Assembly (NCBI RefSeq): GCF_988242995.1 | Contig: NZ_OZ547043.1 | DNA length: 64,000 nt | Reading direction: 5' to 3' (one strand) | Part shown: one piece after another, positions 20,640 to 59,490 of the stretch | How positions within the stretch are numbered: the first letter of the stretch is position 1 | Layout of the letters: each line of letters begins with the position of its first letter | Notes under the pieces: generated by a model | Databases searched by the model: none | What the model was told of the DNA's origin: nothing | What the model saw: only the letters and a program-made list of their open reading frames with translations | Made by a program: the position numbers and the translations under genes

Positions 20640-20905
20640 GGTCATTCTCCTTTACGGTGATAACCGTCGCGTAAGCAAAAAATTGCCCCATTTTTTTGGA
20701 TTCCTCAGCGACAACAACTGTCGATTTTTAGTAAATATCTATCCGGTACGAAGCCCGGCCTCTTGGTATGAATGATTGGTTTGAAGCAAAAAATAACCGA
20801 CGCTGATGAAACGTCGGTTTTTAGTCATTTTTTGACAGCGGCGCATTGTGCCTAAATGGGGGGGAAATGACAAGAGAATGAGAGGCTTGTCATAATAATT
20901 TTTCT

Positions 20906-23573: not shown

Positions 23574-23624
23574 ATGACACGCGTTCAATTTAAACACCAC
23601 CATCATCACCATCATCCTGACTAG
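23574..23624 (+). CDS. hisL: his operon leader peptide
   Basis: MTRVQFKHHHHHHHPD with seven consecutive His codons. Confidence 0.95.
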   Translation: MTRVQFKHHHHHHHPD

Positions 23625-23688
23625 TCTTTCAGGCGATGTGTGCTGGAAGACATTCAGATCTTCCAGTGGTGCATGAACGCATGAGAGA

Positions 23689-23724
23689 GCCCCCGGAAGA
23701 TCACCTTCCGGGGGCTTTTTTATT
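23689..23724 (+). terminator. his attenuator terminator
   Basis: GC-rich hairpin GCCCCCGGAAG/CTTCCGGGGGC followed by TTTTTTATT. Confidence 0.9.
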
Positions 23725-41782: not shown

Positions 41783-42325
41783 TTATAAGCTAGCTTCTTT
41801 AAATTCTGAAAAACTAATTAACGCGTTGTCTTTAGATGACATAATTGGCATGTCTATCGGCCATTGTATATTCAGTTCTTTGTCATTCCAGATTATCCCC
41901 CCTTCATCGGTAGGATCATAGAAGTCTGTGCATTTGTAATGGAAATCCGCATACTCACTTAATACACAAAAACCATGTGCAAATCCAGGTGGGATATAGA
42001 TTTGATTATTTTTATCCCCAGAAAGTATAACACCTACATGCTTTCCAAAAGACGAAGATCCAGGTCTTAAATCAACAGCCACATCAAAAACTTCTCCACT
42101 GATGACACTTACTAATTTACCTTGAGGATTATTTTTTTGAAAATGTAAACCTCGAAGCACATTTCTTGCTGAGCGTGATCGATTATCTTGTACAAATGCC
42201 TCAGTTATTCCTATGTCGTGATATTTCTTCTGATGCCATGCTTCCAAAAAGAAACCACGAGAGTCACCAAAGACTTTTGGCTCAATGATTACACAACCAG
42301 CAAGTGGAGTCTCAATTACCTTCAT
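41783..42325 (-). CDS. rmlC: dTDP-4-dehydrorhamnose 3,5-epimerase family protein (RmlC-like)
   Basis: 180 aa, EPKVFGDSRGFF...VQDN...RGLHFQ motifs typical of RmlC cupins. Confidence 0.8.
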   Translation of the reverse strand: MKVIETPLAGCVIIEPKVFGDSRGFFLEAWHQKKYHDIGITEAFVQDNRSRSARNVLRGLHFQKNNPQGKLVSVISGEVFDVAVDLRPGSSSFGKHVGVILSGDKNNQIYIPPGFAHGFCVLSEYADFHYKCTDFYDPTDEGGIIWNDKELNIQWPIDMPIMSSKDNALISFSEFKEASL

Positions 42326-42396
42326 AATTATAAACCTTGTATTATATTTTTTAAATTTGCTAATTTTTGATACAATTTAGCTACCTTTATCAGTTA

Positions 42397-43479
42397 CTAA
42401 CGCATCTTGTAGTTCTGCTCAATCCAGGTTTGGTACGCCCCACTTTTGATATTTTCAACCCATGAGGTGTTTGCCAGATACCATTCAACCGTTTTGCGAA
42501 TCCCACTTTCGAACGTCTCTTGCGGTTTCCAACCGAGCTCACGGCTGATTTTATCCGCATCGATCGCGTATCGACGGTCATGGCCTGGACGATCGGCAAC
42601 ATAGGTGATTTGTTCACGGTATGACACTGCTTTAGGTACGATCTCATCCAGCAGGTCGCAGATGGTATGTACAACATCGAGATTTTTCTTCTCGTTATGG
42701 CCACCGATGTTGTAGGTCTCACCAGGGATTCCTTTCGTCACCACGGTATATAACGCACGGGCATGGTCTTCAACATAGAGCCAGTCGCGAATCTGATCGC
42801 CTTTACCATAAATGGGTAACGATTTCCCTTCGAGAGCATTGAGAATAACCAAGGGAATCAACTTTTCAGGGAAATGGTATGGGCCATAGTTATTCGAACA
42901 GTTGGTCACCATTGTTGGAAGACCGTATGTACGCAGCCAGGCACGAACGAGATGGTCGCTGGAGGCTTTTGAAGCCGAATAAGGACTACTCGGCGCATAG
43001 GCGGTTTGTTCCGTGAAGAGAGGAAGAATACTCCCCTGCGCAACCTCATCCGGATGCGGTAAATCCCCATAAACTTCATCAGTAGAGATGTGATGGAAGC
43101 GGAATGTCGCCTTTCGCGCACTATCCAGTGAGGACCAGTATTGACGGGCTGTTTCTAAAAGAACATAAGTACCCACAATATTCGTTTCAATAAATGCAGC
43201 AGGGCCTGTAATTGAACGGTCAACATGGCTTTCAGCAGCCAGGTGCATCACTGCATCCGGCTGATGCTGAGAAAAAATTCGCGCCATTGCAGCAGCATCG
43301 CAAATATCCGCATGTTCAAAAACATAGCGTTCAGAATCAGAAACATCAGCAAGTGATTCCAGGTTTCCGGCGTACGTTAATTTATCGACATTAACAACAC
43401 TATCCTGCGTATTATTTATAATGTGACGAACTACAGCAGAACCAATAAATCCTGCGCCACCAGTAACAAGTATCTTCAC
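42397..43479 (-). CDS. rmlB: dTDP-glucose 4,6-dehydratase
   Basis: 360 aa, [20 protein letters not shown]; YxxxK motif present. Confidence 0.9.
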
Positions 43480-43553: not shown

Positions 43554-43592
43554 CACGCTACCGCCCCTGGCTTTACAGCTACCAGAGCACTA
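43554..43592 (-). promoter_or_regulatory. JUMPstart element containing the ops site (GGCGGTAGCGTG)
   Basis: Reverse complement of the plus strand gives CAGTGCTCTGGTAGCTGTAAAGCCAGGGGCGGTAGCGTG; ops at 43554..43565. Confidence 0.85.
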
Positions 43593-44918: not shown

Positions 44919-46313
44919 CTACTCCCTCCGTTCCGGCAATCTAAAGTTAATCTTTTCCACATTAACAATATGGTGATTTATCCTGTCGATATCGACGGAG
45001 CTTTGCCCTCTTTCATTCACCGCATGAACATTTGCAAGAGATAGCAGTGTTTCTTTTTTCGCCATAAAGACGCCGCGAACGTCTTTGCGCATGTCAAAGT
45101 TCATGCTCAATGCTGGTCCAACAGAGGATTTCTGCATCACCTTGATATTACGCATAAAAAGGTGTTGCGGTTTATTGTGTAGCTCAAGCGAGGCACGCTT
45201 CATCTCAATGTTAGTCAGTGCCACAAAGGAGACAGCATTCCCGGCGGAGATTTGGATGCCGCGCAATTTATAAGCAAGGTGAGTGTTATCCAGTTGAATA
45301 TTATTCACTCGGAAATTTTGCGGTATCGAGAGATATTTGCCTTTAATTACCCCATAGCCAATTAACATCCCGGCGCTATTAATCATTTCAATATTATCAA
45401 TCACGAATTTGTCACAACCGTAAATAGCGACTGTGGCGTTATCAATGCCTGCTTTCTTACTGAAATCCGGCGTGATATTGCGGGCTTTGATATTACGAAT
45501 AACAAAATGTTTACCATTTTCAACATGTATCAACTGCCGACAATCCGATCCCGTGATATTCGCCACGACAAAGTTTTTCACTGCCTGATCTTCCGGGTAA
45601 TTATTATCGTAAGTGCTTCCCGCAAGGCCTATGCCAATGCCCCAGTTGATTTTGCCGTTAGTACAGTTGATGCGCTCGATGACATGGTCGGAGATCAAAA
45701 TATCACTGTCGTTAATTGCCACGTTCCATTCAATGGCGTCGCCCTGTAAGTCGCTGAACTTACAGTTGGTGATGTTGGCACCGATTATCTGGTTATGAAA
45801 TCCCTGGCGTAAGATGGCGTAATTAGCGTGGCTAACGGTCAGGTTATCGATGGTCAGGTTGCGCATGACCCGTTTGTTTTTGCCGCCGATATAAATCTGC
45901 GTTACCGGACCAAAGCCGCTCATCGCCAGCCCTTTGATGGTGCAGTCAGAGCCGCGCACATCCAGGGTGATGTTATGCATACTGCCGCCCTCCTCCCCTG
46001 TCACCTGGCTGCCGTCCTGTAAGATAAATCGCCCTCTGCCGTTGCCGCGCAGGCTTCCAAGGATGTGTAACGTTTTACCTGCAGGAATGAAGATGCCGGT
46101 GTTGATATTGTCGCAAACCAATCCGGCAGGCACGACGACCGTTTGCCCTTCGCTGAAGGCTTGTTTAAATGAGGCGATCCAGTCGTGAGGGTTGTAGTCG
46201 TTAATGTTAACGCTTTGTCGGGCGGGAAGTGCGCGAGCGAAAGGGGTATGGAGGAAGGCAAGGGCCGAGCTTGCCGTCAGGAAGGTGCGTCGGGAGAGTT
46301 TTTTAAATGGCAT
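44919..46313 (-). CDS. wcaM: colanic acid biosynthesis protein WcaM
   Basis: 464 aa, Tat-like signal [20 protein letters not shown]; beta-helix-like. Confidence 0.85.
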
Positions 46314-46323
46314 ACGTTCTCCT

Positions 46324-47544
46324 CTATAAAGCCTGCAACAAGCTGGCGAGTTCTCGATTAATCACCTGCTGGTTAAAATCGTGTTCGACTTTTTCGCGAG
46401 CACGTTTGATAACCGGAGCCAGTTCGTTGGTGTCCAGTTGGCTAAATGCCGCCAGGCGTTGCGCCAGTGCGCGAGCATCGTTCTCAGGCACCAGCCAGCC
46501 GGATTTATCGGCCTCAACCAGTTCTGGTATTCCGCTATGCAGAGTTGAAACAACCGGAATGCCGACCGCCATTGCTTCCATTAGCGCCACCGGAATACCT
46601 TCCATATCACCATCCGCACCTGTAACCGATGGCAACAGGAAGACATCCGCGTCGTCGAGCATCGCTTTCACTTCATGGCTCGGTTTAAAGCCCGGCATCT
46701 CCACCACATCTTCCAGTTGATATTGTTCGATGAGGGTACGCAGGCGTCGTTCCCACGGGCCAATGCCGAGGATGCGATAGCGAAATGCCATGCCCTGCTC
46801 TTTCAACTGACGGCAGGCTTCGATCGCCACATGCAGGCCTTTTTTTTCAGTTAAGCGTGCGACGGAGATGATTTCCAGCGGCGTTGCGGGCGCTTTCACC
46901 GGACGCGGGCTAAAGCGCGTCATGTCCACGCCCATACGCGATACGGCGATTTTTTCTCTGGGGCAGCCCATTTTTTGCAGCCTTCCGGCCCACAAATCGC
47001 TTATCGGTAACATCAGGTCGCCACGGCGAAACAGTTGCTGATATTCGGGAGTGTAATGGTTGAGCACTTCCCGACTGGAAATATCAATGCCGTGGAAAAT
47101 AGTGGCAATTTTGCCGCGAATGACACCCAGTTCGCGTAGTTTTGCTGCGGTTACCCCCGCCGGGCCAAAATGAGCGATGAACACATCGGCGCGAAACGGT
47201 GTTGCGACCTGGCCGCAAATGGCAGACAAAATCAGGTTCCGCGACTCGGCACCATAGCGTTTGAGGTTGAGCGCCTGCCAGGTATTTTTACGATGAATGC
47301 CGCGCAAGGTCTGACTGGCGCGGTGGCGCAGCTTCGCCACTTTGCCCGTAGGTTCGTCCTGTAACCATCGGGTTCTGGCGGCAAGGTTGTATTTCGTCCA
47401 TGCCGCGTGGGTGTTTTGTGTGTCGCCTTTTTGCAGCGCGACAATCTCCACCTCAAAGCCCATATCAATAAACGCGGTAATTTGGTTGAGGACGAAGGTT
47501 TCCGACGACAGCGGAAATTTCAGTAAAAAGAAGCCAACCTTCAT
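46324..47544 (-). CDS. wcaL: colanic acid glycosyltransferase WcaL
   Basis: 406 aa GT-B type; synteny. Confidence 0.85.
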
Positions 47545-48821
47545 TTCGCCTCCCCAATGCGTTCCAGTACGGACTGCACCATCTGCATTCCTGTCTGACG
47601 CTCACGACTGACGGCTTCGCTAAGTCGTGCGTTCAGCGCCGGAAGCTGGCCTAAGGTATCCGCAACCATCGCTTGCAGGCTGCCGTCCAGTAAATGACGG
47701 ATATCAATCGCCATCTCCGGTAGTCCCAACTGCTGCATAATCCCGGCGGATTTATGTTCATAGTTGATGGCAATCGCCGGAGTAGCAAAGTTCATTGAGA
47801 TAATGGCGGAGTGCAGGCGCGTACCGACGGTGAGTTCACAGGCCCCCAGAATTTTGCCCATTTCCAGATCGTTGAGTTCATCCATCACTACGTGATAACG
47901 GGCAGGATCGCTGATGTGCTGGCGTAGGTTGAGCGCCACCATTCGGTCGTCTTTGTTATAGCTGTCGATGCCCGTACAGGTGGATAGCGCAATCACCTGA
48001 TACCCTTCGTCGAGAATGCGATTGACCACCCCGGCAAAGGCTTTTTCATACGCTTGTTGAGTGGTGCCGAGACGTTTGTCGAACGGTGCCAGTTCGCGCA
48101 GGGTAATTGCCACCGTTTTCTGTTGTGCGGCAACGTCCAGCCAGTGTTGGACGGCATAGCTGGCGGTGAAATCTTCTGTGTGGTGATCGACCAGCCACGC
48201 GGTATCGACGCCATCTTCCACTTTTGCAGTGGTGATATTGCTGCGTTTCATCAGTTCGAGACTGACCGATTCGCGCAGGATCAGCGCGTTACAGTGACCA
48301 AAAACGTAGTTCGCCAGTTGGTTAAATTGCTCATCCTGGAAGGGACCGACGCTGTGACCAATCATAAACAGCGGCTTTTTCGCCATAAATGTGCAAAGCG
48401 CATGTTCAAACTGCGGCACGCCGTAGAGATCGACAAAAAACGATCCGCCGACCTGAATAATGGCGTCGTAACCTGACAGCAGGCGCACGAAGTCGGTGAA
48501 TCCCTGGGCGATGGCGATATTACGCAGCTTGCCAGTGTCAGTGACGCGTGAGAGCAATACCTGGTGTTGATAGCGGCGACGGAGGACTTTTTTAACGCGC
48601 CCGACAACGCCCGCCGCGCTGTTGTGTTGTTTCATTTGCAGGAACAGCGGATCGCCCATTACCGGGCGGTTGAGCAGCCAGGAAGAACTGACCGGATAGC
48701 GGCTCATCACGTCCACTTCGGCTTGTGGATTGAGGATGTTGATGGCATCAAGTAAGCCGCGCAAGATGGCGCTGTCGCCACGATTGCCGCAAGTGTGGTT
48801 GCCCAGAATAAGTAATTTCAT
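47541..48821 (-). CDS. wcaK: colanic acid pyruvyl transferase WcaK
   Basis: 426 aa; synteny. Confidence 0.85.
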   Translation of the reverse strand: MKLLILGNHTCGNRGDSAILRGLLDAINILNPQAEVDVMSRYPVSSSWLLNRPVMGDPLFLQMKQHNSAAGVVGRVKKVLRRRYQHQVLLSRVTDTGKLRNIAIAQGFTDFVRLLSGYDAIIQVGGSFFVDLYGVPQFEHALCTFMAKKPLFMIGHSVGPFQDEQFNQLANYVFGHCNALILRESVSLELMKRSNITTAKVEDGVDTAWLVDHHTEDFTASYAVQHWLDVAAQQKTVAITLRELAPFDKRLGTTQQAYEKAFAGVVNRILDEGYQVIALSTCTGIDSYNKDDRMVALNLRQHISDPARYHVVMDELNDLEMGKILGACELTVGTRLHSAIISMNFATPAIAINYEHKSAGIMQQLGLPEMAIDIRHLLDGSLQAMVADTLGQLPALNARLSEAVSRERQTGMQMVQSVLERIGEAK

Positions 48822-48882
48822 TTTTTCCTCATAAATTTGATGCCAGGTGAGGCTGCGTTTGTTTTGTTCGTTGCCGCTTTTT

Positions 48883-49070
48883 GCCTGATGCGACGCTGAC
48901 GCGTCTTATCAGGCCTACAAGACCCGAGCACAGAACCGTAGGCCGGATAAGGCGTTCACGCCGCATCCGGCATTCAGTGCCTGATGCGACGCTGACGCGT
49001 CTTATCAGGCCTACAGGTCCCGAGCACAGAACCGTAGGATGGATAAGGCGTTTTACGCCGCATCCGGCAA
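48883..49070. repeat. tandem REP/BIME units (about 96-bp period)
   Basis: GCCTGATGCGACGCTGACGCGTCTTATCAGGCCTAC...GCCGCATCCGGCA repeated twice nearly identically. Confidence 0.85.
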
Positions 49071-49096
49071 CCGTTGTCGGAACCGAAAACAGCAAC

Positions 49097-50575
49097 TCAC
49101 CCCGCCCGTAAAAGCATTTTCATTTTTTCGCTGCGACAAAACTGACGCTTCACTTCCACCACCAGCGGATGGCGCGACAGCACAATCATCACCACAAACG
49201 CCAGCACGCCCGCGGCTATTTGCACCGCCAGCAGCATCCCCAGCGCCAGTTGCCCTTTCAGCACAATGCCCAGCGCATAACTAACCACCAGCGTCGGCAG
49301 CGAGAGGTAAAACGGCAGCCACAAACTCAGGATGTACTGGCGATAACTGGAACCAAGAACCGGTTTAATCATCACGAAGTAACTCAGAATGGTGTTGATA
49401 ATCTGCACCAGCAGGAAACCGAGCGTGACGCCGATTGCGCCCGCCATCTGCCCACCAATAACAATCGCCGGAATAAACAGAAAGGTTTTGAATACGTTGA
49501 ATTTAAAGCTGATGTCGACCCGCGCTTTCGCCATCAGCAGCGAACCAATCGGGTTACCCACGGAGCGCAGCAGACCCACAATACACAGCAATTGCAGCAC
49601 CGGAATAATGCTGTTCCACTTTTCGCCGAATACCAGCGGTACGAAGTTATTCGACACCACCATCAGCCCCAGCAGCGCCGGAAAGTTGATAATCCCCACC
49701 ACCGACAGCAGTTTGTAGAAGTTAATACGCAGCTTTTCGGTGTCGTCCTGAATTTTGGCAAACGCCGGAAACAACACACGGGTGATGATTGGGTTCAGCT
49801 TCATCGGTGGCACAACGGCCACGTTGTACGCCAGGTTGTACCCCCCTGCCACGCTCGCGCCGAGAATACGCGCCAGCACCAGCGTTGAAAGGTTGGTATT
49901 GAGATAGTTGATGATGCTGTCCGCCGTCAGCCAGGCACCAAAGCGTAAGTTCGGTGCCACCGACGCCAGCGAGAAATGCAGACCGGGGCGATAAATTTTG
50001 CGACCAAAGTAGCCAAACAGCAGCGTTCTTACCGCACTATTGACCAGATAACCGAGGATCGCGGTCATCGCCAGCGGCCAGAAATGGGCGCTAACCACCG
50101 TAAAAGTGAAGCCCGCCAGCACCGCGCTGGTTTCGATCATGCCGATTTTGTTGAACTCCAGTTCCTTCTGCATCAACGCGCGGAACTGCTGCCCGTGGGG
50201 GATCACCACAAACGCCAGCGACAATGTTTTAATCAACGGTGCCAGGTCCGGGTTGTTCAGCACGTCGCCGATGAGATCACTCAACAAAAACACCGCCACG
50301 CACACCACAAGCCCCAGCCCGACGTTCAGCCAGTACAACGTGGTGAGTTCAAGGTGGCTGATTTCTTTTCGCTGAATAATCGAGTTAGCGATACCAAAGT
50401 CAGAAAGCGTATCTGCCAGCGCGATGATCACCAGCGACACGGTAAGCAAACCGAACTGGTGGTTGTCGATAATCCGCGCCAGCACGGTCATCTGCACCAG
50501 CCCGAGGCCGATGATGATCACCGTGGCAATCGCCGACCACTTCGCGCCGCTGATGGTTTTTTCACGTAAGCTCAT
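49097..50575 (-). CDS. wzxC: colanic acid flippase
   Basis: 492-aa polytopic membrane protein; synteny. Confidence 0.85.
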   Translation of the reverse strand: MSLREKTISGAKWSAIATVIIIGLGLVQMTVLARIIDNHQFGLLTVSLVIIALADTLSDFGIANSIIQRKEISHLELTTLYWLNVGLGLVVCVAVFLLSDLIGDVLNNPDLAPLIKTLSLAFVVIPHGQQFRALMQKELEFNKIGMIETSAVLAGFTFTVVSAHFWPLAMTAILGYLVNSAVRTLLFGYFGRKIYRPGLHFSLASVAPNLRFGAWLTADSIINYLNTNLSTLVLARILGASVAGGYNLAYNVAVVPPMKLNPIITRVLFPAFAKIQDDTEKLRINFYKLLSVVGIINFPALLGLMVVSNNFVPLVFGEKWNSIIPVLQLLCIVGLLRSVGNPIGSLLMAKARVDISFKFNVFKTFLFIPAIVIGGQMAGAIGVTLGFLLVQIINTILSYFVMIKPVLGSSYRQYILSLWLPFYLSLPTLVVSYALGIVLKGQLALGMLLAVQIAAGVLAFVVMIVLSRHPLVVEVKRQFCRSEKMKMLLRAG

Positions 50576-50576
50576 A

Positions 50577-51971
50577 TCAATATGCCGCTTTGTTAACGAA
50601 GCCTTTGAATACCGTCAGGAAAACGATTTTGATATCGAACCAGACGCTCCATTCGCGGATGTACTCAAGGTCGAACTCGACGCGTTTTTCCATTTTCTCC
50701 AGCGTGTCGGTTTCGCCGCGCCAGCCATTAATCTGCGCCCAGCCGGTAATGCCCGGTTTCACCTTATGGCGCAGCATGTAGCCTTCAATGAGCTGGCGAT
50801 ACTGTTCGTTATGCGCCACCGCGTGCGGACGTGGACCCACAATCGACATCCCCCCGGTCAGCACATTGATAAACTGCGGCAGTTCATCCAGCGAGGTGCG
50901 GCGCAGAAAGTTCCCCACTTTGGTGACGCGCGGATCGTTCTGCGTCGCCTGAGTCACCACTTTGTCGTTCTCCATCACTTTCATAGAACGGAACTTCCAC
51001 ACTTTGATCGGCTTGCCATCCATGCCGTAGCGAGTCTGGCGGAAAATAACCGGCCCCGGTGAGCTCAGTTTCACCGCCAGCGCAATGCAGCACAGCACCG
51101 GGGAGATCAGCAGCAGGATAAGCGTCGCCAGCACAATGTCTTCTGCACGTTTTATCAGACGGTTAACCCCGGAAAGCGGCGTGTCATACAGCGGCACCAC
51201 CGGTACGCCGTTCATCTCTTCGATACGGGAATGGAGAATGTTGAAGGTAAAGACATCGGGGATCAGCAGCACCGAACAGGTGGTGTCCGCCAGTTGATGG
51301 ACCAGTTTTTTCACTCGCGCGCCGTCGCACATCTGCATCGCGATATAGACGTTATGAATCTTGCCCGCTTTCGCATCCTCGACCAGTTGTTGCAGATTGC
51401 CCGCCCAGTCGTTAGAAACGCCGCCCGGTTTTGGGTCGTGGTATACGCCCACCACTTCAAACCCTAACCACGGCTGATTACGGAAGCTCTCCATCAGCAT
51501 TTGTCCGGCGGCTAAATCCCCCGCCACCGCGACCATCCGCTTGTTATAGCCATGATTACGCAGCCAGCCCGCCCCAATGCGAATACATGAACGGCAAACC
51601 ACCAGTCCGATGCTGGTCAGCCCATACCACGCCAGCCAGATTTTCAGTTGCGTGTCGAAATCATTGTTGAACGCCACCAGTCCGGCGCTGAAAATCACGC
51701 TTAAGGTCCAGTTTTGTAGCAGCAGGGCAAATTCTGTCGCGGCCCGAACACCGCGCCATGAGCGATAAAAATCGGTGATGCCGCCCAGCATCTGGAACAC
51801 CACCAGCGTAATCAGCGCCACCAACAGGTGCATGTAGAGGAATGACAGTCCGCTGACTTCGCAAACCAGCCATAGCCCGGCAAACATGATGGTGATATCT
51901 GAAAAGCGTTGCACCATAGAGATTAACGATGCATTGGTTTTCGCTCGCTCGCGCTTTTTTAGATTTGTCAT
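50577..51971 (-). CDS. wcaJ: UDP-glucose:undecaprenyl-phosphate glucose-1-phosphate transferase
   Basis: 464 aa; conserved sugar-transferase C-terminal domain. Confidence 0.85.
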   Translation of the reverse strand: MTNLKKRERAKTNASLISMVQRFSDITIMFAGLWLVCEVSGLSFLYMHLLVALITLVVFQMLGGITDFYRSWRGVRAATEFALLLQNWTLSVIFSAGLVAFNNDFDTQLKIWLAWYGLTSIGLVVCRSCIRIGAGWLRNHGYNKRMVAVAGDLAAGQMLMESFRNQPWLGFEVVGVYHDPKPGGVSNDWAGNLQQLVEDAKAGKIHNVYIAMQMCDGARVKKLVHQLADTTCSVLLIPDVFTFNILHSRIEEMNGVPVVPLYDTPLSGVNRLIKRAEDIVLATLILLLISPVLCCIALAVKLSSPGPVIFRQTRYGMDGKPIKVWKFRSMKVMENDKVVTQATQNDPRVTKVGNFLRRTSLDELPQFINVLTGGMSIVGPRPHAVAHNEQYRQLIEGYMLRHKVKPGITGWAQINGWRGETDTLEKMEKRVEFDLEYIREWSVWFDIKIVFLTVFKGFVNKAAY

Positions 51972-51993
51972 CGTTGTTCCTGTTATATTGTCG

Positions 51994-52094
51994 CCTCGCC
52001 CCTCACCCCGGCCCTCTCCCCAAAGGGGCGAGGGGGAGAAGAAAGTTCCGTGCTCACTTCTCTCCGCAGGCAGTAGAGCGTCAGGGTGAGGGGG
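51994..52094. repeat. GC-rich interleaved inverted repeats in the wcaJ-cpsG spacer
   Basis: CCTCGCCCC pairs with GGGGCGAGG; CCCCTCACCCC pairs with GGGTGAGGGGG. Confidence 0.5.
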
Positions 52095-52106
52095 AAAGTA
52101 ATGACA

Positions 52107-53477
52107 TTACTCGTTCAGCAACGTCAGCAGAGTTCGCGTTCGCGCTTCCATCAGCGGCACATCACCGCGCGATTCCACATTCAGGCGCACCACCGGTTCG
52201 GTGTTGGAGGAGCGCAGGTTAAAGCGCCAGTCGGCAAAGGTCATGCTGATACCATCGGTGCGATCCACCGCCAGCGCCTCACGACTAAAATGCTGTTCGA
52301 CGCGATTAATCGCCTCAACGGGTTGCGCCAGTTTGCTGTTGATCTCACCGCTTGCCGGAAACGCCGCCATCCGGTCGCGCACCAGTTCGCCCAGCGTTTT
52401 TCCTTTCAGGCACACCAGTTCGGCTACCAGCAGCCACGGGATCATGCCGCTGTCGCAGTAAGCGAAATCACGGAAGTAATGGTGAGCGCTCATTTCGCCA
52501 CCGTAGATGGCGTCTTCCTTGCGCATCCGTTCTTTAATAAAGGCGTGTCCGGTTTTCGACATTACCGGGGTGCCGCCTGCGGCAGTCACCACATCAATAG
52601 TGTTCCAGGAGAGACGCGGATCATGGATGATCTTCGCGCCGGGATTTTTTTCGAGGAACGCTTCTGCCAGCAGGCCGACAATGTAGTAGCCCTCGATAAA
52701 CTGCCCTTTTTCGTCAAACAGAAAACAGCGGTCAAAATCGCCATCAAAGGCAATGCCCATATCCGCGCCGTGTTTGATGACCGCATTGCGGGTGTCGTCG
52801 CGGCATTCCGGCAGTAGCGGGTTAGGAATACCGTTGGGGAAATTGCCGTCCGGCGTGTTGTGCACTTTGATTAATTCCACGGGTGCGCCGAGGGCGTTAA
52901 AGCGGGCTTCGATAGCGTCCACCACCGGACCCGCCGCGCCGTTCCCGGAGTTGATCACCAGCTTGAGCGGCGTGAGGTTTTTGACATTGATATAACCGAA
53001 CAGGTGATCAACGTAAGCATCACGCAGATTGATTTGCTGATAGCGACCGCGTTTGGTTTCATCGACGGGAGGAAAGTCGTTGGCTTCAGCCAGACGCTGG
53101 ACGTCGCGCAGTCCGGTATCTCCGCTGATCGGGCGAGCCCCCTCGCGAACCAGCTTCATGCCGTTATAATCCATCGGATTATGGCTGGCGGTAACTTCAA
53201 TGCCGCCATCCACGCCGAGATGGAACGTGGCGAAATAGATCTCTTCGGTGCCGGACATACCAATATCCAGCACGTCAACGCCCGCATCCTGTAAACCTTT
53301 TGCCAGCGCCAGTTTTAAGGTTTCGCTGGTGAGACGGACATCACCGCCTAACACAATGGTTTTCGGTTTGAGAAATTCGCCATAAGCGCGACCAATGCGC
53401 CAGGCAATATCTTCATTCAATTCTTCGCCTAATTTCCCGCGAATATCATAGGCTTTAAAGCAGGTTAATTTTTTCAT
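52107..53477 (-). CDS. cpsG: phosphomannomutase
   Basis: 456 aa from [14 protein letters not shown]; active-site TASHNP. Confidence 0.9.
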
Positions 53478-53555
53478 ATCGTTACCCTTTTTCAGGCAAT
53501 AGTTGGTCCTGACCGAAGCGGCCAATTTTATTTTTGTCGTTATTTACACCGCGGT

Positions 53556-53669
<114 letters not shown>

Positions 53670-55106
53670 TTACACCCGTCCGTAGCGATCCGCGAAGCGC
53701 ACCACATCATCCTCTTCGAGATAAGAGCCGGAGCGCACTTCAATTAAATCGAGCGGAATTTTCCCCGGGTTTTCCAGGCAGTGCGTCGCCCCCAGCGGAA
53801 TATAAATGGACTCGTTTTCACCAAGCAGTTTGATATCACCGTCAATGGTGACTTTTGCCGTTCCCGCAACCACCACCCAGTGTTCCGCGCGGTGATGGTG
53901 CATCTGTACCGACAAGCCCTCGCCCGGTTTCACGGTGATGCGTTTCACCTGGTAGCGGTCGCCCGCGTCGATAGAGTCATATTTGCCCCACGGACGATAC
54001 ACTTCGCGATGCACCCGATGCTCATGGCGACCATCGGCTTTGATCTGCTCGACCACTTTTTTCACATCCTGCACCGCGTTACGGTCGGCAATCAGCACCG
54101 CATCTTTGGTCTGCACCACTACCAGATCTTTCACCCCGACGGTGGTGACCAGGCCAGATTCGGCGTACACATAGCTGTTTTCAGTTTTGTGATTAATCAC
54201 ATCTCCGTGGCAAACGTTGCCCTCGGCGGTGTGGGCGCTAATTTCCCATAATGAGGACCAGGAGCCGACATCGCTCCAGCCCGCATCCATCGGTACCACA
54301 ACGGCATCTGCCGTACGTTCCATGACCGCGTAATCCACCGACTCTTCCGGGCAGGCGAGAAACGCTTCTTCATCCACACGAATAAAATCAAGATCCGGAT
54401 CGACGGAGCTCATCGCTTTTTCACAGGCATCAAGAATATCCGGGCGATATTTTTTCAGTTCTTCGAGATAGCGTCCGGCGCGGAACAGGAACATGCCGCT
54501 GTTCCAGTAATATTCGCCGCTTGCCACATAGGCCTGAGCGGTTTCAAGATTCGGTTTTTCGACAAACTGCGCCACTTCAAAGGCCACCGTATCCTGCTCA
54601 CCCGCAGACACTTCACCGCGACGAATATAGCCATAACCGGTTTCTGGTAGATCCGGCACAATGCCAAAGGTCACCAGCTTGCCCGCTTCGGCATATGGCA
54701 TGGCATTACGCACGGCGGCACGGAACGCGTCTTCATCGGCAATCACATGATCCGCCGCCAATACCAGCATTAACGGGTCGCTCTCCGGGCTATGACGTTT
54801 TGCCGCCAGCGCCGCCAACGCAATGGCAGGTGCAGTGTTACGCCCTGCAGGTTCGAGAATAATGTTCTCGGTGAGTTTGTTCAGTTGACGCAGCTGTTCC
54901 GCGACAATAAAGCGGTGCTGCTCATTGCAAATCACCACCGGGCTTTCGCACTCCACGCCGTTTAGGCGGCAGATGGTGGTTTGCAGCATGGTGAGATCGC
55001 CTTTCAGGCATAAAAACTGCTTGGGATAAAGTACGCGGGAAAGCGGCCATAAGCGGCTACCGGAGCCACCTGCCATCACAACTGGATAGAGTTTCGACTG
55101 CGCCAT
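53670..55106 (-). CDS. cpsB: mannose-1-phosphate guanylyltransferase
   Basis: 478 aa; C-terminal cupin. Confidence 0.9.
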
Positions 55107-55108
55107 AA

Positions 55109-56332
55109 TTATCCCCGAATATCATTTATAAATTGACGTAACACGTTCTCTTTATCGAGCGTGCGTTCGGCATATTCACGTGCCACCGTGTTGTGTTTGG
55201 GCAGCAGGAGCGCCTGACGGATCCCCGCCACCAGCGCCTCGACCGATTCCGGTTCTACGCAAACCGCAATGCCCGGAAAGGTTTCGCAAAGCTGCCCCAG
55301 TTCTGTGTGGGCTTCTGCGGTAATCACCGCGTTACCGCCTACCGCCAGAATATTGGTCAGTTTCGACGGCAATACGGCATCTGCCGCGCCGCGTTTTTGC
55401 ACCACCAGATGGCAATCGCCCATCTTCAGCAGTGCGGGTAAAGCGTCATACGATTGCAGCGGGAAAAATTGCATGTTGCGCAGTCCACGCTGCTGCGCCA
55501 TTTTTTCCAGCCGCGCTTTGCCGCCGCCTTGCCCGACAATGGCAAAAATCAGCGGTTCATCGCGCAGGCGATCGGCAGCTTCAATAACGTTTTCCAGCCC
55601 CTGCTTTTCACCAATATTGCCGGAGTAAAGAATGATTTTTTTGTTATCCGGCAGGCCAAGCTGGTTACGAAGGGCATCAACATCGGCATCTGCAACATGC
55701 TGAAAACGGGCAATTTCCGACCAGTTGGGGAAGAAAATGACGTTTTCCGCCGCCACGCCTTTTTCGATGGCTTTATTCATCATCGAACGCGAAATCGTGG
55801 AGACGTTATCGACGTTATGCAATCCGCTACGTTCGAACGCCGTTGCCAGCTGTGCCACTTTGCCGCCTTTGCCTTTTCCGGCAAGGCCCAGCCCCAGCAT
55901 GGCGTCCACTTCGTAATCCTGAATATGCAGCACGGTACGCGCACCAGAGAGTTTCGCCAGCAGGCGCATTCCCGGCGTGCAAAACAGCGTTGGCACCACG
56001 CCGATAATGCGATCCGGCTTCCAGCGACGTTGCGCCATCAGAGGAAAGAAACTGCTGACGGCAAAACTGCTGAGATGTAACAGGCGTTTCAGGGTGCTCG
56101 GCTGTTTTGGCACGTACAGCGGGCAGCGCCACACCGTGGCGGCCCCCTCTTCTCGTTTGTAGCGCCAGGCGGAATAGTTCTCGCCCACCTGCCACTGCGG
56201 GTAGTAAGGCGGTGCGGTAATAACCCGCACCTCATGACCTTGTGCCGCCAGCCATTCCACCATCTCGCCGGTGTATTTGCCGATACCGGTTAACTCCGGC
56301 GAGTAGTTAATGCCGTAGACCAGTATTTTCAT
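55109..56332 (-). CDS. wcaI: colanic acid glycosyltransferase WcaI
   Basis: 407 aa GT-B; synteny. Confidence 0.85.
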
Positions 56333-56811
56333 AATCCGGGTACTCCGGCACGCTTCTCAGCGAGAAAATAGGCGCGGCTGTTAGCGTGAACATCGTTACT
56401 GGCGAGCAGCGCGTCCGGCGTCAGCCAGCGGTAATCGTCATGCTGCTCATCCGGCAGTATCAGATCTTCTTCAGCGACTCTGAAGCGAAAACCGAGCACC
56501 ACATAGTGAGTGGTGAAATCCGTGCCGGAGAAGTTATCGTCATAAAAGTGCTGCCAGACACCGTAAAACTGGCCTGCTGTTATCGGCAGACGCAGCCCCA
56601 GTTCCGCCATCGTCAGCCGCTCGAATGCGGCTTCCAGCGTTTCGTCTTTCTGCACGCGCCCTCCCGGCACAAACCAGTAACCCTGCGCCGGGCGGTTGGT
56701 TCTTTTGCCAAGCAGAAACTCGCCGCGACTGTTCTCGACAATAAAGTCGAGAGAGACAAGCGGGGTGGAGCGCACTACCGTGGCAAAGTCTTCCTGACGT
56801 AAAAACATCAT
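56329..56811 (-). CDS. gmm: GDP-mannose mannosyl hydrolase (Nudix)
   Basis: 160 aa with Nudix box; overlaps wcaI by 4 nt. Confidence 0.85.
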
Positions 56812-57776
56812 TACCCCCGAAAGCGGTCTTGATTCTCAAGGAACCACTGGTAAGTGCTGGCAAGCCCCGCTTCCAGTGAGATTTCGTGATACCAGCCAAG
56901 CTGATGCAGGCGCGTCACATCCAGCAGTTTGCGCGGCGTACCATCCGGTTTGCTGGCATCAAAAACCACCCGACCTTTGTAACCCACCACTTTGGCGATG
57001 GTTTGCGCCAGCTCGCGGATAGTGCAGTCAACGCCCGTGCCGACGTTAATGTGCGACAGCATCGGCTGGGTGTTCTCCAGCCAGACTTCGTGCGCCAGCT
57101 CCATGACATGAATGCTCGCCGCCACCATATCATCGACGTGCAGGAATTCACGCATCGGTGTACCGCTGCCCCATACCACCACGTCCGGTGCATTCTGTGC
57201 CGTCGCCTCGTGGAAGCGACGCAGCAATGCAGGGATCACATGCGAATTACTCGGGTGGAAGTTGTCATGCGGGCCATACAGGTTGGTCGGCATGACTGAG
57301 CGGTAATCGCGTCCGTACTGGCGGTTGTATGATTCGCACAGTTTGATCCCGGCGATTTTGGCAATGGCGTAAGGCTCGTTGGTCGGCTCCAGCGTGCCCT
57401 GCAATAACTCGCTTTCTGCCATCGGCTGTTTTGCCAGTTTCGGGTAGATACAGGACGATCCAAGAAACAGCAGTTTGTTCACGTCGTTCTGATGCGCGGC
57501 GTGAATGATGTTGCTCTCAATCATCATGTTCTGGTAGATGAAATCCGCCGGATAGGTGTTGTTGGCAACAATGCCGCCCACTTTCGCCGCCGCCAGATAG
57601 ACCTGGTCAATGCGTTCGCTGGCAAAGAAATCATGCACCGCGCGGCTGTCCAGCAGGTTCAGCTCGTCGCGGGTGCGTAATACCAGTTCCACATCACCGC
57701 GCTGTTCGAGCTGCCGCCTGATGGCAGAACCGACCATCCCACGATGGCCAGCGATAAAAATGCGTTGTTTACTCAT
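56811..57776 (-). CDS. fcl: GDP-L-fucose synthase
   Basis: 321 aa, [19 protein letters not shown]. Confidence 0.9.
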
Positions 57777-57778
57777 GC

Positions 57779-58900
57779 TTATGACTCCAGCGCGATCGCC
57801 ACGTCGTAGCCGTGAGATTTCAGCAGAGAGTGTTTTTTCGCCGCTTCGAGGTCATTAGCCACCATTTCAGACACCATCTCTCTGAGGGTGATTTCCGGTT
57901 TCCAGCCCAGTTTTTCGTGCGCTTTGGTCGGGTCGCCGAGCAGCGTTTCAACTTCTGCCGGACGGAAGTAACGCGGGTCAACGGCGATAATCACATCGCC
58001 CGGTTTAACGCCCGGCGCGTCATGCCCGGTGACGGAAACCACAATGCCCTTCTCTTCAACGCCCGTGCCTTCAAAGCGCAGTTTGATGCCCAGCTGTGCT
58101 GCCGCCATTTCCACGAACTGACGCACGGAGTACTGAACGCCGGTCGCGATAACGAAATCTTCCGGCTGTTCCTGTTGCAGCATCATCCACTGCATTTTTA
58201 CGTAGTCTTTGGCATGGCCCCAGTCACGCAGGGAATCCATATTGCCGAGGTACAGGCACGACTCCAGCCCCTGGGCGATATTGGCGATTGCGCGGGTGAT
58301 TTTGCGGGTAACGAAGGTTTCGCCGCGGCGCGGGGATTCATGGTTGAAGAGAATACCGTTACAGGCGTACATGCCGTAGGATTCGCGGTAGTTAACGGTG
58401 ATCCAGTAGGCGTACAGTTTGGCGACAGCATACGGAGAGCGTGGGTAGAACGGCGTGGTTTCTTTCTGCGGAATTTCCTGCACCAGACCATACAGTTCAG
58501 AGGTGGAAGCCTGATAGAAACGGGTTTTCTTTTCCAGACCGAGGAAGCGGATCGCCTCGAGCAGGCGCAGCGTACCCATCGCATCGACGTCTGCGGTATA
58601 TTCCGGTGACTCAAAAGAAACCGCAACGTGGCTCATTGCGCCCAGGTTGTAAACTTCATCCGGCTGCACTTCACGCAAAATGCGTGTCAGGTTGGAGGTA
58701 TCACTCAGGTCGCCATAATGCAGATGGAATTTCGGGTTGCAGGTGTGCGGATCCTGATAAATGTGATCCACGCGCTCGGTGTTGAATGACGATGCACGAC
58801 GCTTAATACCATGCACCTCGTAACCTTTTTCCAGCAGAAACTCTGCCAGGTAAGAACCGTCTTGTCCGGTTACACCGGTGATGAGAGCGACTTTTGACAT
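57779..58900 (-). CDS. gmd: GDP-mannose 4,6-dehydratase
   Basis: 373 aa, [23 protein letters not shown]. Confidence 0.9.
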
Positions 58901-58926
58901 GTCTTATTCCTCTGTATTTTTTGAAT

Positions 58927-59475
58927 TTATTCAGTTTCAACGCGTTCGCGTATCACCACTGCGGGATTCCCCCGGCAAACCACATTTGCCGGAAGCGTTT
59001 TAAAAACACTGCTTCGTGCACCCACGACGGTGCCGTCGCCAATCGTGACGCCAGGGGCAACAAAAACATCGGTTGCCAGCCAGCATTTCTCGCCAATCAC
59101 AATAGGCGTAGCATTAATGGTGAAATGTTGACTTGCATGGTCGTGGCTACCGGTGCATAAATAACTTTTTTGCGATATCACCGAATGTGCGCCAATGGTT
59201 ATTTCACCGAGGGTATATAAATTGACGTCATCGCCGACCCACGCGTAATCACCTAAGGTTAATTTCCACGGATAGGTAATTTTTACTGACGGACGAATAA
59301 CTACGTTTTTTCCTATTTTTGCGCCGAATAAACGTAATAAAAATGCCCGCCAGCGATACAATACTTGTGGCGACCAGGCAAATATTGTTGCCTGTACTGC
59401 CCACCATAATTGCACTTTAATAGCGTTGCCGCCCCGGAACCCTTTCGGCACCGAGAAACCGCTTAAATCTTGCAT
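58927..59475 (-). CDS. wcaF: colanic acid acetyltransferase WcaF
   Basis: 182 aa hexapeptide-repeat protein. Confidence 0.85.
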   Translation of the reverse strand: MQDLSGFSVPKGFRGGNAIKVQLWWAVQATIFAWSPQVLYRWRAFLLRLFGAKIGKNVVIRPSVKITYPWKLTLGDYAWVGDDVNLYTLGEITIGAHSVISQKSYLCTGSHDHASQHFTINATPIVIGEKCWLATDVFVAPGVTIGDGTVVGARSSVFKTLPANVVCRGNPAVVIRERVETE

Positions 59476-59490
59476 CGTTTTCCCTTATAT

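Follow-up and report, generated by a model that had tools for sequence, protein, structure and literature searches.

What is the tandem palindromic repeat that separates wzxC from wcaK in the Escherichia coli colanic acid cluster, and does it do anything for the operon that carries it? We addressed this question in a 64,000-nt stretch of contig NZ_OZ547043.1 from RefSeq assembly GCF_988242995.1 (hereafter the window), where open reading frames (ORFs) and the RefSeq annotations of matching genomes place an E. coli colanic acid (wca) cluster on the - strand. Over the test segment, E. coli strain 7/2 matches the window at 100% identity. An initial annotation of this DNA had described two nearly identical 96-bp REP-pair units between wcaK and wzxC, further REPs between cpsG and cpsB, mirrored artefact ORFs generated by the repeats, and a possible differential stability of the mRNA within the operon. 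The locus is laid out as follows:

47541-48821 (-): wcaK, from ORFs and the RefSeq annotations of matching genomes; start codon 48819-48821
49097-50575 (-): wzxC, from ORFs and the RefSeq annotations of matching genomes; stop codon TGA at 49097-49099
48822-49096 (-): wzxC-wcaK intercistronic spacer, 275 bp, transcribed from right to left; equal to K-12 in length and architecture
48882-49070 (no strand): BIME-2 array of two 96-bp units, i.e. four REPs, from tandem-repeat and REP scans; equivalent of K-12 REP144
48883-48918 (+): Z2-type REP of unit a; Z2 probe 36/36, degenerate pattern with 0 mismatches
48919-48937 (no strand): 19-nt linker from the CCTAC end of Z2 to the CCTAC end of Y, kept in every unit of all alleles
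48938-48971 (-): Y-type REP of unit a; Y probe 34/34, mRNA-strand hairpin of -21.3 kcal/mol
48972-48978 (no strand): 7-nt short linker joining the units, ACTGAAT on the mRNA, from sequence and allele comparison
48979-49014 (+): Z2-type REP of unit b; 36/36 match
49034-49068 (-): Y-type REP of unit b, partly decayed; 28-nt match at 93%
49072-49080 (-): short direct repeat CCGACAACG at the array flank, upstream copy on the mRNA, from filled versus empty alleles
48869-48876 (-): flanking direct repeat CGGCAACG, downstream copy on the mRNA, from filled versus empty alleles
48829-49095 (-): mechanical ORF of 88 aa with a TTG start, running through the array; artefact with internally repeated peptides
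48881-49111 (+): mechanical ORF of 76 aa with a TTG start on the opposite strand; artefact with internally repeated peptides

Tandem Repeats Finder detected the array at 48882-49069 with a period of 96, 1.9 copies, 93% matches and a score of 334, and a repeat search recovered a 75-nt repeat present twice at an offset of 96 nt with 95% identity. Across the 64-kb window, a degenerate REP pattern matched at 48883-48918, 48979-49014 and 53568-53603, with 0 matches expected from 100 shuffles, and blastn-short searches with Y and Z2 probes located two REP loci only. These scans bear out the two near-identical REP-pair units, in kind as well as in position. Read on the mRNA strand, the array runs Y> 19 nt Z< 7 nt Y> 19 nt Z<, beginning 28 nt past the wzxC stop and ending 61 nt ahead of the wcaK ATG. 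In this orientation, the unit-a Z2 REP reads GTAGGCCTGATAAG... and its predicted hairpin has a free energy of -20.5 kcal/mol, and the decayed Y REP of unit b, with a CCATCCTAC foot and one additional loop base, forms a weaker hairpin of -13.7 kcal/mol. The mirrored ORFs were rightly called artefacts: both encode repeated peptides, the 88-aa frame disappears or alters its length as the unit number changes across alleles, and neither this frame nor the 76-aa one should be annotated as a gene.

In the Bachellier/Gilson classification summarised by Ton-Hoang et al. (2012, PMC3333891), BIME-2 elements are tandem copies of y and z2 REPs, with short linkers that are variable in length and sequence and a copy number that differs between strains; BIME-1 elements are single-copy combinations of z1 and y REPs with a long L linker, often bearing an IHF site. 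Every REP of the array is an imperfect palindrome with a GTAG/CTAC foot and a stem mismatch, ends in CCTAC, and is predicted to fold with the internal mismatch given in the REP description of PMC3333891. As far as sequence can tell, the array agrees with BIME-2 on all points: it combines y and z2 REPs (Y probe 34/34; Z2 probe 36/36, twice), alternates REPs and inverted REPs with short linkers, occurs in tandem copies that vary by strain (two units in the window, 0 to 6 in representative genomes), and is extragenic, lying wholly inside the 275-bp spacer. It includes no L linker, and no IHF consensus (WATCAANNNNTTR) was found on either spacer strand. The z1/z2 call rests mainly on the gapless alignment of the array Z hairpin with its Z2 counterpart in the Rfam naRNA4 model, because the Y and Z2 probes follow what we take to be the consensus sequences. 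A BIME-1 (RIB/RIP) identity was considered as well and is ruled out by the missing IHF consensus, the short linkers, the z2-type partner and the tandem amplification. Candidate CC^T motifs for the REP-associated transposase TnpA-REP are located at the unit boundaries (TGCCTGAT at 48882 and 48978) and in the CCTAC feet; judged by sequence and by comparison with PMC3333891, they take the forms TGCC^TGAT in z2 and CC^TAC.

The comparison with the K-12 wca cluster that had been proposed at the outset returned the same four-REP array. The K-12 MG1655 spacer is of equal length, contains the same four REPs, and carries 2 substitutions in 321 aligned nt, both of them in Y REP feet (CCGTCC in K-12 versus CCATCC and CCGGCC in the window). 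Harris et al. 2026 (supplement to bioRxiv 10.64898/2026.03.23.713779) catalogue the element as REP144 (MG1655 2118467-2118652, 'tandem' pair wzxC->wcaK), and we take the name from there; the K-12 RefSeq feature table examined contains no repeat_region at this spacer. The 2011 study by Iguchi et al. (PMC3158064) described REPs in the wcaK-wzxC, cpsG-cpsB, wcaA-wzc, hisI-wzz and yeeZ-hisL spacers, along with between-strain indels of two or four REPs and recombination junctions that occasionally coincide with them. Both the presence and the polymorphism of REPs at wzxC-wcaK are thus already known from the 2011 study, and with REP144 catalogued, the locus polymorphism published and the BIME-2 class well described, the discovery value of the array itself is small.

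To place the two units of the window in a population context, we used a 720-nt query composed of the two flanks only, which found matches in 4653 of the 5426 complete E. coli genomes, and considered the spacer spans of 60 of the 4653 matches, listed at even steps down the ranking. Among these 60 listed matches, 23 carried two units, plus 1 with a 9-nt duplication; eight carried one unit, seven none, three carried three units (plus 2 decayed), four carried four, five carried five and two carried six. One decayed remnant, three unrelated spacers and one partial match account for the others. Representative E. coli alleles follow the formula (Y-19nt-Z2-7nt)n with n = 0 to 6, i.e. 0 to 12 REPs, and the spacer lengthens with n, from 71 bp (n = 0) through 179, 275, 371, 468 and 564 bp to 660 bp (n = 6). 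Sets of near-identical genomes displayed a constant unit number, with one unit in the O157:H7-type set (4 rows of the list) and two in the K-12-type set (6 rows). Since the unit number is uniform inside the near-identical sets sampled, the variation lies between lineages, and the number of 96-bp units offers a convenient lineage marker.

Two alleles depart from this formula. Strain FDAARGOS_772 has two units in a 284-bp spacer, in which 9 nt at a Z REP foot (GTAGGACCT) are duplicated in tandem, and is an example of small-scale slippage inside the array. In T7Express and other B-type E. coli, wzxC and wcaK are separated by an unrelated 161-bp spacer with a boxC-like palindrome, and the flanks of this junction differ too, ribosome-binding region included, which suggests that the junction was replaced through recombination.

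The empty allele features a perfect hairpin with a 13-bp stem (-21.9 kcal/mol) directly past the wzxC stop. In filled alleles, the array sits in the loop region of this empty-site hairpin, with an 8-9-nt direct repeat (CCGACAACG ... CGGCAACG) at its flanks, and in E. whittamii both hairpin arms are kept with a single Z REP between them. Outside E. coli, the wzxC-wcaK junction measures <=45 bp in 50 of the 78 other Enterobacteriaceae species in which wzxC and wcaK are adjacent; these short junctions (14-45 bp in most species) hold little beyond the wcaK Shine-Dalgarno sequence, or ribosome-binding site. Longer junctions contain REPs in Escherichia and the Citrobacter amalonaticus group, boxC-like CCCTCACCC...GGGTGAGGG palindromes in many genera (Pluralibacter, Lelliottia, Kosakonia and others) as well as in B-type E. 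coli, and an ERIC-like element in one case. The junction is therefore a recurrent landing site for small palindromic repeats of three unrelated families, REP, boxC-like and ERIC-like. The array itself is dispensable and lineage-variable, because empty alleles occur in 7 of the 60 listed E. coli matches and the junction does not exceed 45 bp in 50 of the 78 other species.

The second REP locus of the window, which had likewise been pointed out in the initial annotation and was recovered by blastn-short and by comparison with K-12, lies in the cpsB-cpsG spacer (53479-53669):

53568-53668 (no strand): REP locus of the cpsB-cpsG spacer, from the REP pattern and blastn-short

It consists of a Z REP (53568-53603, +), a Y REP (53615-53648, -) and a 13-nt partial Z (53656-53668, +), between the cpsB stop (53670-53672) and the cpsG start at about 53478. 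The partial Z lies 1 nt from the cpsB stop, and the first full REP starts 21 nt after it. K-12 has only the 13-nt half-REP CGTCGCATCAGGC in this spacer, 1 nt past the cpsB stop; the window has, in addition, an 88-nt Y+Z unit, with CGTCGCATCAGGC as a 13-nt direct repeat at its bounds and a GCC^TGAT motif, of the kind cleaved by TnpA-REP, at both boundaries. This 88-nt indel could have arisen by slippage or by transposase action. A translation-coupled effect is known for REPs located very near a stop codon; the only REP fragment abutting a stop here is the 13-nt piece at cpsB, and the full REPs begin 28 nt (wzxC) and 21 nt (cpsB) away.

Other elements were noted around these spacers. Between the REP unit and cpsG, directly upstream of the start of this phosphomannomutase gene, is a match to the Rfam algC RNA motif (RF02929; 72.8 bits; 53482-53531, -) whose sequence is kept in K-12. 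The cpsG-wcaJ spacer (51972-52106) contains a G+C-rich palindromic insert of ~81 bp (CCCCTCACCCCGGCCCTCTCCCC...GGGTGAGGGGG), which we take to be boxC-like. This insert is missing in K-12, where the spacer is 54 bp long; its core is found at 2 sites in the median E. coli genome and at 6 at most, and the full-length allele in 508 genomes. On the O-antigen side of the window, a JUMPstart RNA (43554-43592, -) follows galF and heads the O-antigen genes, and just past its galF side, at 42300-43200, identity to K-12 falls from about 95-97% to 73-79%, which by sequence comparison marks the start of an O-antigen gene set other than the O16 set of K-12. A histidine operon leader (Rfam, 130 bits; 23600-23723, +) and the enterobacterial sRNA STnc240 (Rfam, 68 bits; 20786-20860, -) are expected neighbours of the his/O-antigen region. 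The window ends 16 nt into the wcaA-wzc spacer, and the wca promoter and leader lie beyond it; in K-12, the JUMPstart/ops leader is on the - strand, about 180 nt upstream of wza.

Taken together, these data show that the array is a dispensable BIME-2 element (REP144); very probably it holds no essential or dedicated regulatory role and exerts at most a modest local effect, and it is most likely a near-neutral mobile repeat. Its arrival and the changes in its unit number would reflect the usual dynamics of REPs, with TnpA-REP, a Y1 transposase, presumably acting in trans; slippage or unequal recombination between the 96-bp units may have contributed in addition or instead. The array is probably co-transcribed with the rest of the wza-wcaM operon, and would then form a set of very stable stem-loops on the mRNA. 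The predicted fold of the spacer reaches -136 kcal/mol on the mRNA strand (z = -9.7; 0 of 200 shuffles equally stable) and -113 kcal/mol on the + strand (z = -5.4), each intact REP contributing a hairpin of about -20 kcal/mol on either strand. By analogy with REP325 and other REPs, the array could plausibly influence mRNA decay or read-through locally, and the hairpins may act as a barrier to 3'->5' decay that protects the wza-wzxC part of the transcript, in a modest and context-dependent manner. REP hairpins are able to halt 3'->5' exonucleases (Newbury et al. 1987 and Stern et al. 1988, both cited by PMC3158064), and the differential mRNA stability suggested at the outset is this classical REP hypothesis.

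Expression across the array was evaluated from published K-12 data, namely DESeq2 base means from uninduced cells grown in LB at 37 °C (supplement of bioRxiv 10.64898/2026.03.23.713779), expressed per kb via gene lengths. Upstream of REP144, base means per kb were 19-52 for wzc, wcaA, gmd, wcaI, cpsB, wcaJ and wzxC, and downstream they were 71 for wcaK, 132 for wcaL and 103 for wcaM. Read density in the K-12 wca operon (equivalent to window positions 44919-64000) hence steps up about 3-5-fold exactly at REP144, in counts that amount to tens of reads from an operon that is off in that condition, and for which the strand-specificity of counting is not stated. Levels across the spacer are non-uniform, in the direction opposite to upstream protection or attenuation. 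An internal promoter, processing, the strandedness of counting and low-count noise are all candidates for this step, and we do not take it as evidence for a new function.

Several other explanations were weighed against a near-neutral mobile repeat. The one that survives best, although we consider it unlikely, is that the array behaves as a dual terminator-stabiliser similar to REP325, imposing partial Rho-dependent attenuation on wcaK-wcaL-wcaM and stabilising the wza-wzxC mRNA, with the unit number setting the proximal/distal ratio. REP325 attenuates downstream transcription, partly via Rho, and stabilises the upstream gene (yjdN lowered about 8-10-fold, yjdM stabilised); both its architecture, an alternating Y/Z2 BIME-2, and its context between tandem genes of one operon match the array, and genome-wide, tandem gene pairs with a REP show a higher upstream/downstream expression ratio. 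On the - strand of the spacer we found no intrinsic terminator (G+C-rich hairpin followed by a U-tract), the sole terminator-scan match being inside wzxC and no better than chance, so any termination there would be factor-dependent. However, RNA polymerase modified by RfaH resists Rho. A JUMPstart/ops leader precedes wza in K-12, and an RfaH ChIP signal at the wza locus, described as wza-wcaM, was reported for CFT073 lacking hns and stpA (PMC9765446); with the wca operon under RfaH control, Rho-dependent attenuation should therefore be blunted. The K-12 base means also climb rather than drop across REP144, the orientation of the array to transcription is opposite to that of naRNA4/REP325, and the sole Rho/NusG-associated peak listed beside REP144 is on the antisense strand, with a 1-nt overlap.

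A role at the DNA level appears less probable still, whether as a preferred gyrase site easing positive supercoiling in a 20-kb operon under strong transcription, or as a topological insulator. BIME-2 elements are enriched for gyrase cleavage sites in vivo, chiefly in y REPs and independently of transcription (PMC6379681), and the array contains two y REPs. Yet only a subset of BIME-2 elements is cleaved, wzxC-wcaK is not among the loci named in that study, and empty alleles, as well as most genera, dispense with any element at the junction.

We attach a low probability to the idea that the unit number (0 to 6) serves as a heritable dial for wcaK (pyruvyl transferase), wcaL and wcaM relative to the flippase/polymerase part of the operon, and that repeated filling of the junction, independently by REP, boxC-like and ERIC-like hairpins across genera, reflects selection for a structured RNA. 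If so, lineages would differ in the amount or pyruvylation of colanic acid with coding sequences and promoter unchanged. Against the near-neutral view, spacer identity between the window and K-12 (about 99%) exceeds that of the flanking genes (95-97%), which could hint at constraint; homogenisation among REP copies explains this equally well.

It is doubtful, too, that the array is kept or spread because it promotes homologous or illegitimate exchange at the boundary between O-antigen and colanic acid genes. REP indels coincide with similarity changes at wcaK-wzxC in two O157 strains (Iguchi et al. 2011, PMC3158064), the flanks differ in divergence between alleles of different unit number, and B-type strains carry an unrelated spacer. 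Nevertheless, identity between the window and K-12 does not break sharply at the array but shifts mildly, being about 95.5% towards wcaM-wcaK and about 97% towards wzxC, and the authors of the 2011 study themselves counted few such cases (PMC3158064).

The step in K-12 read density invites the further suggestion that wcaK-wcaL-wcaM have a transcript of their own, whose 5' end the array would mark or create through a weak internal promoter or a processing site leaving a protective 5' hairpin, thereby raising distal levels. Although the about 3-5-fold rise in base means per kb falls exactly at the junction, we regard this as very unlikely: no sigma-70 promoter consensus was detected on either strand of 48600-49300, the rise is built on tens of reads from a silent operon with counting strandedness not stated, and a literature search turned up no paper on an internal wcaK promoter.

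Finally, one database match could be mistaken for a gene:

48941-49011 (+): match to Rfam naRNA4 (RF02564), Y(a) + 7-nt linker + Z2(b); 79.7 bits against a gathering score of 59.5

That the array encodes a naRNA4-like small RNA, whose product would bind HU and aid nucleoid condensation, is scarcely credible despite this score, as the model is simply a Y-linker-Z2 pair from REP325 with which the 7-nt linker aligns minus 6 nt, the threshold is passed only on the strand opposite the operon (the operon's own - strand reaches 55.4 bits, short of the 59.5 gathering score expected of an expressed sRNA), neither spacer strand has a promoter consensus, and the nucleoid-condensation role of REP325/naRNA4 was, according to bioRxiv 10.64898/2026.03.23.713779, not reproduced. 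On the strand-resolved Rfam scan we reject the small-RNA reading; the hit is a generic BIME-2 match and does not warrant a small-RNA gene annotation.

Set beside known systems, the BIME-2 array at this position has relatives of several kinds. The boxC-like and ERIC/IRU repeats occupy the same junction in other lineages and also form long hairpins, but they are unrelated to the array in sequence and are not REPs, while BIME-1 elements share with it the inverted REP pairs. Classical upstream-stabilising REPs are likewise hairpins within a polycistronic transcript past a stop codon, which here is 28 nt away, although the K-12 counts display no upstream excess. REP325 (naRNA1-6), the BIME-2 of yjdM-yjdN with 12 REPs, resembles the array in its alternating Y/Z2 tandem units between co-oriented genes, and some E. 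coli wzxC-wcaK alleles reach the same 12 REPs. It differs in having six units versus two in the window, in a Y-to-Z2 linker of 13 nt in the Rfam consensus versus 7 nt here, and in its orientation to transcription, in which the array is inverted, and the operon hosting the array is under JUMPstart/RfaH control. If the effects of REPs on read-through or decay scale with unit number, the wzxC-wcaK alleles would provide a natural series of 0 to 6 units, in an operon that is well understood, for the model derived from REP325. REP144 of K-12 is the same element at the same locus, with the same four REPs, linkers and 275-bp spacer, and only two point differences separate it from the array of the window.
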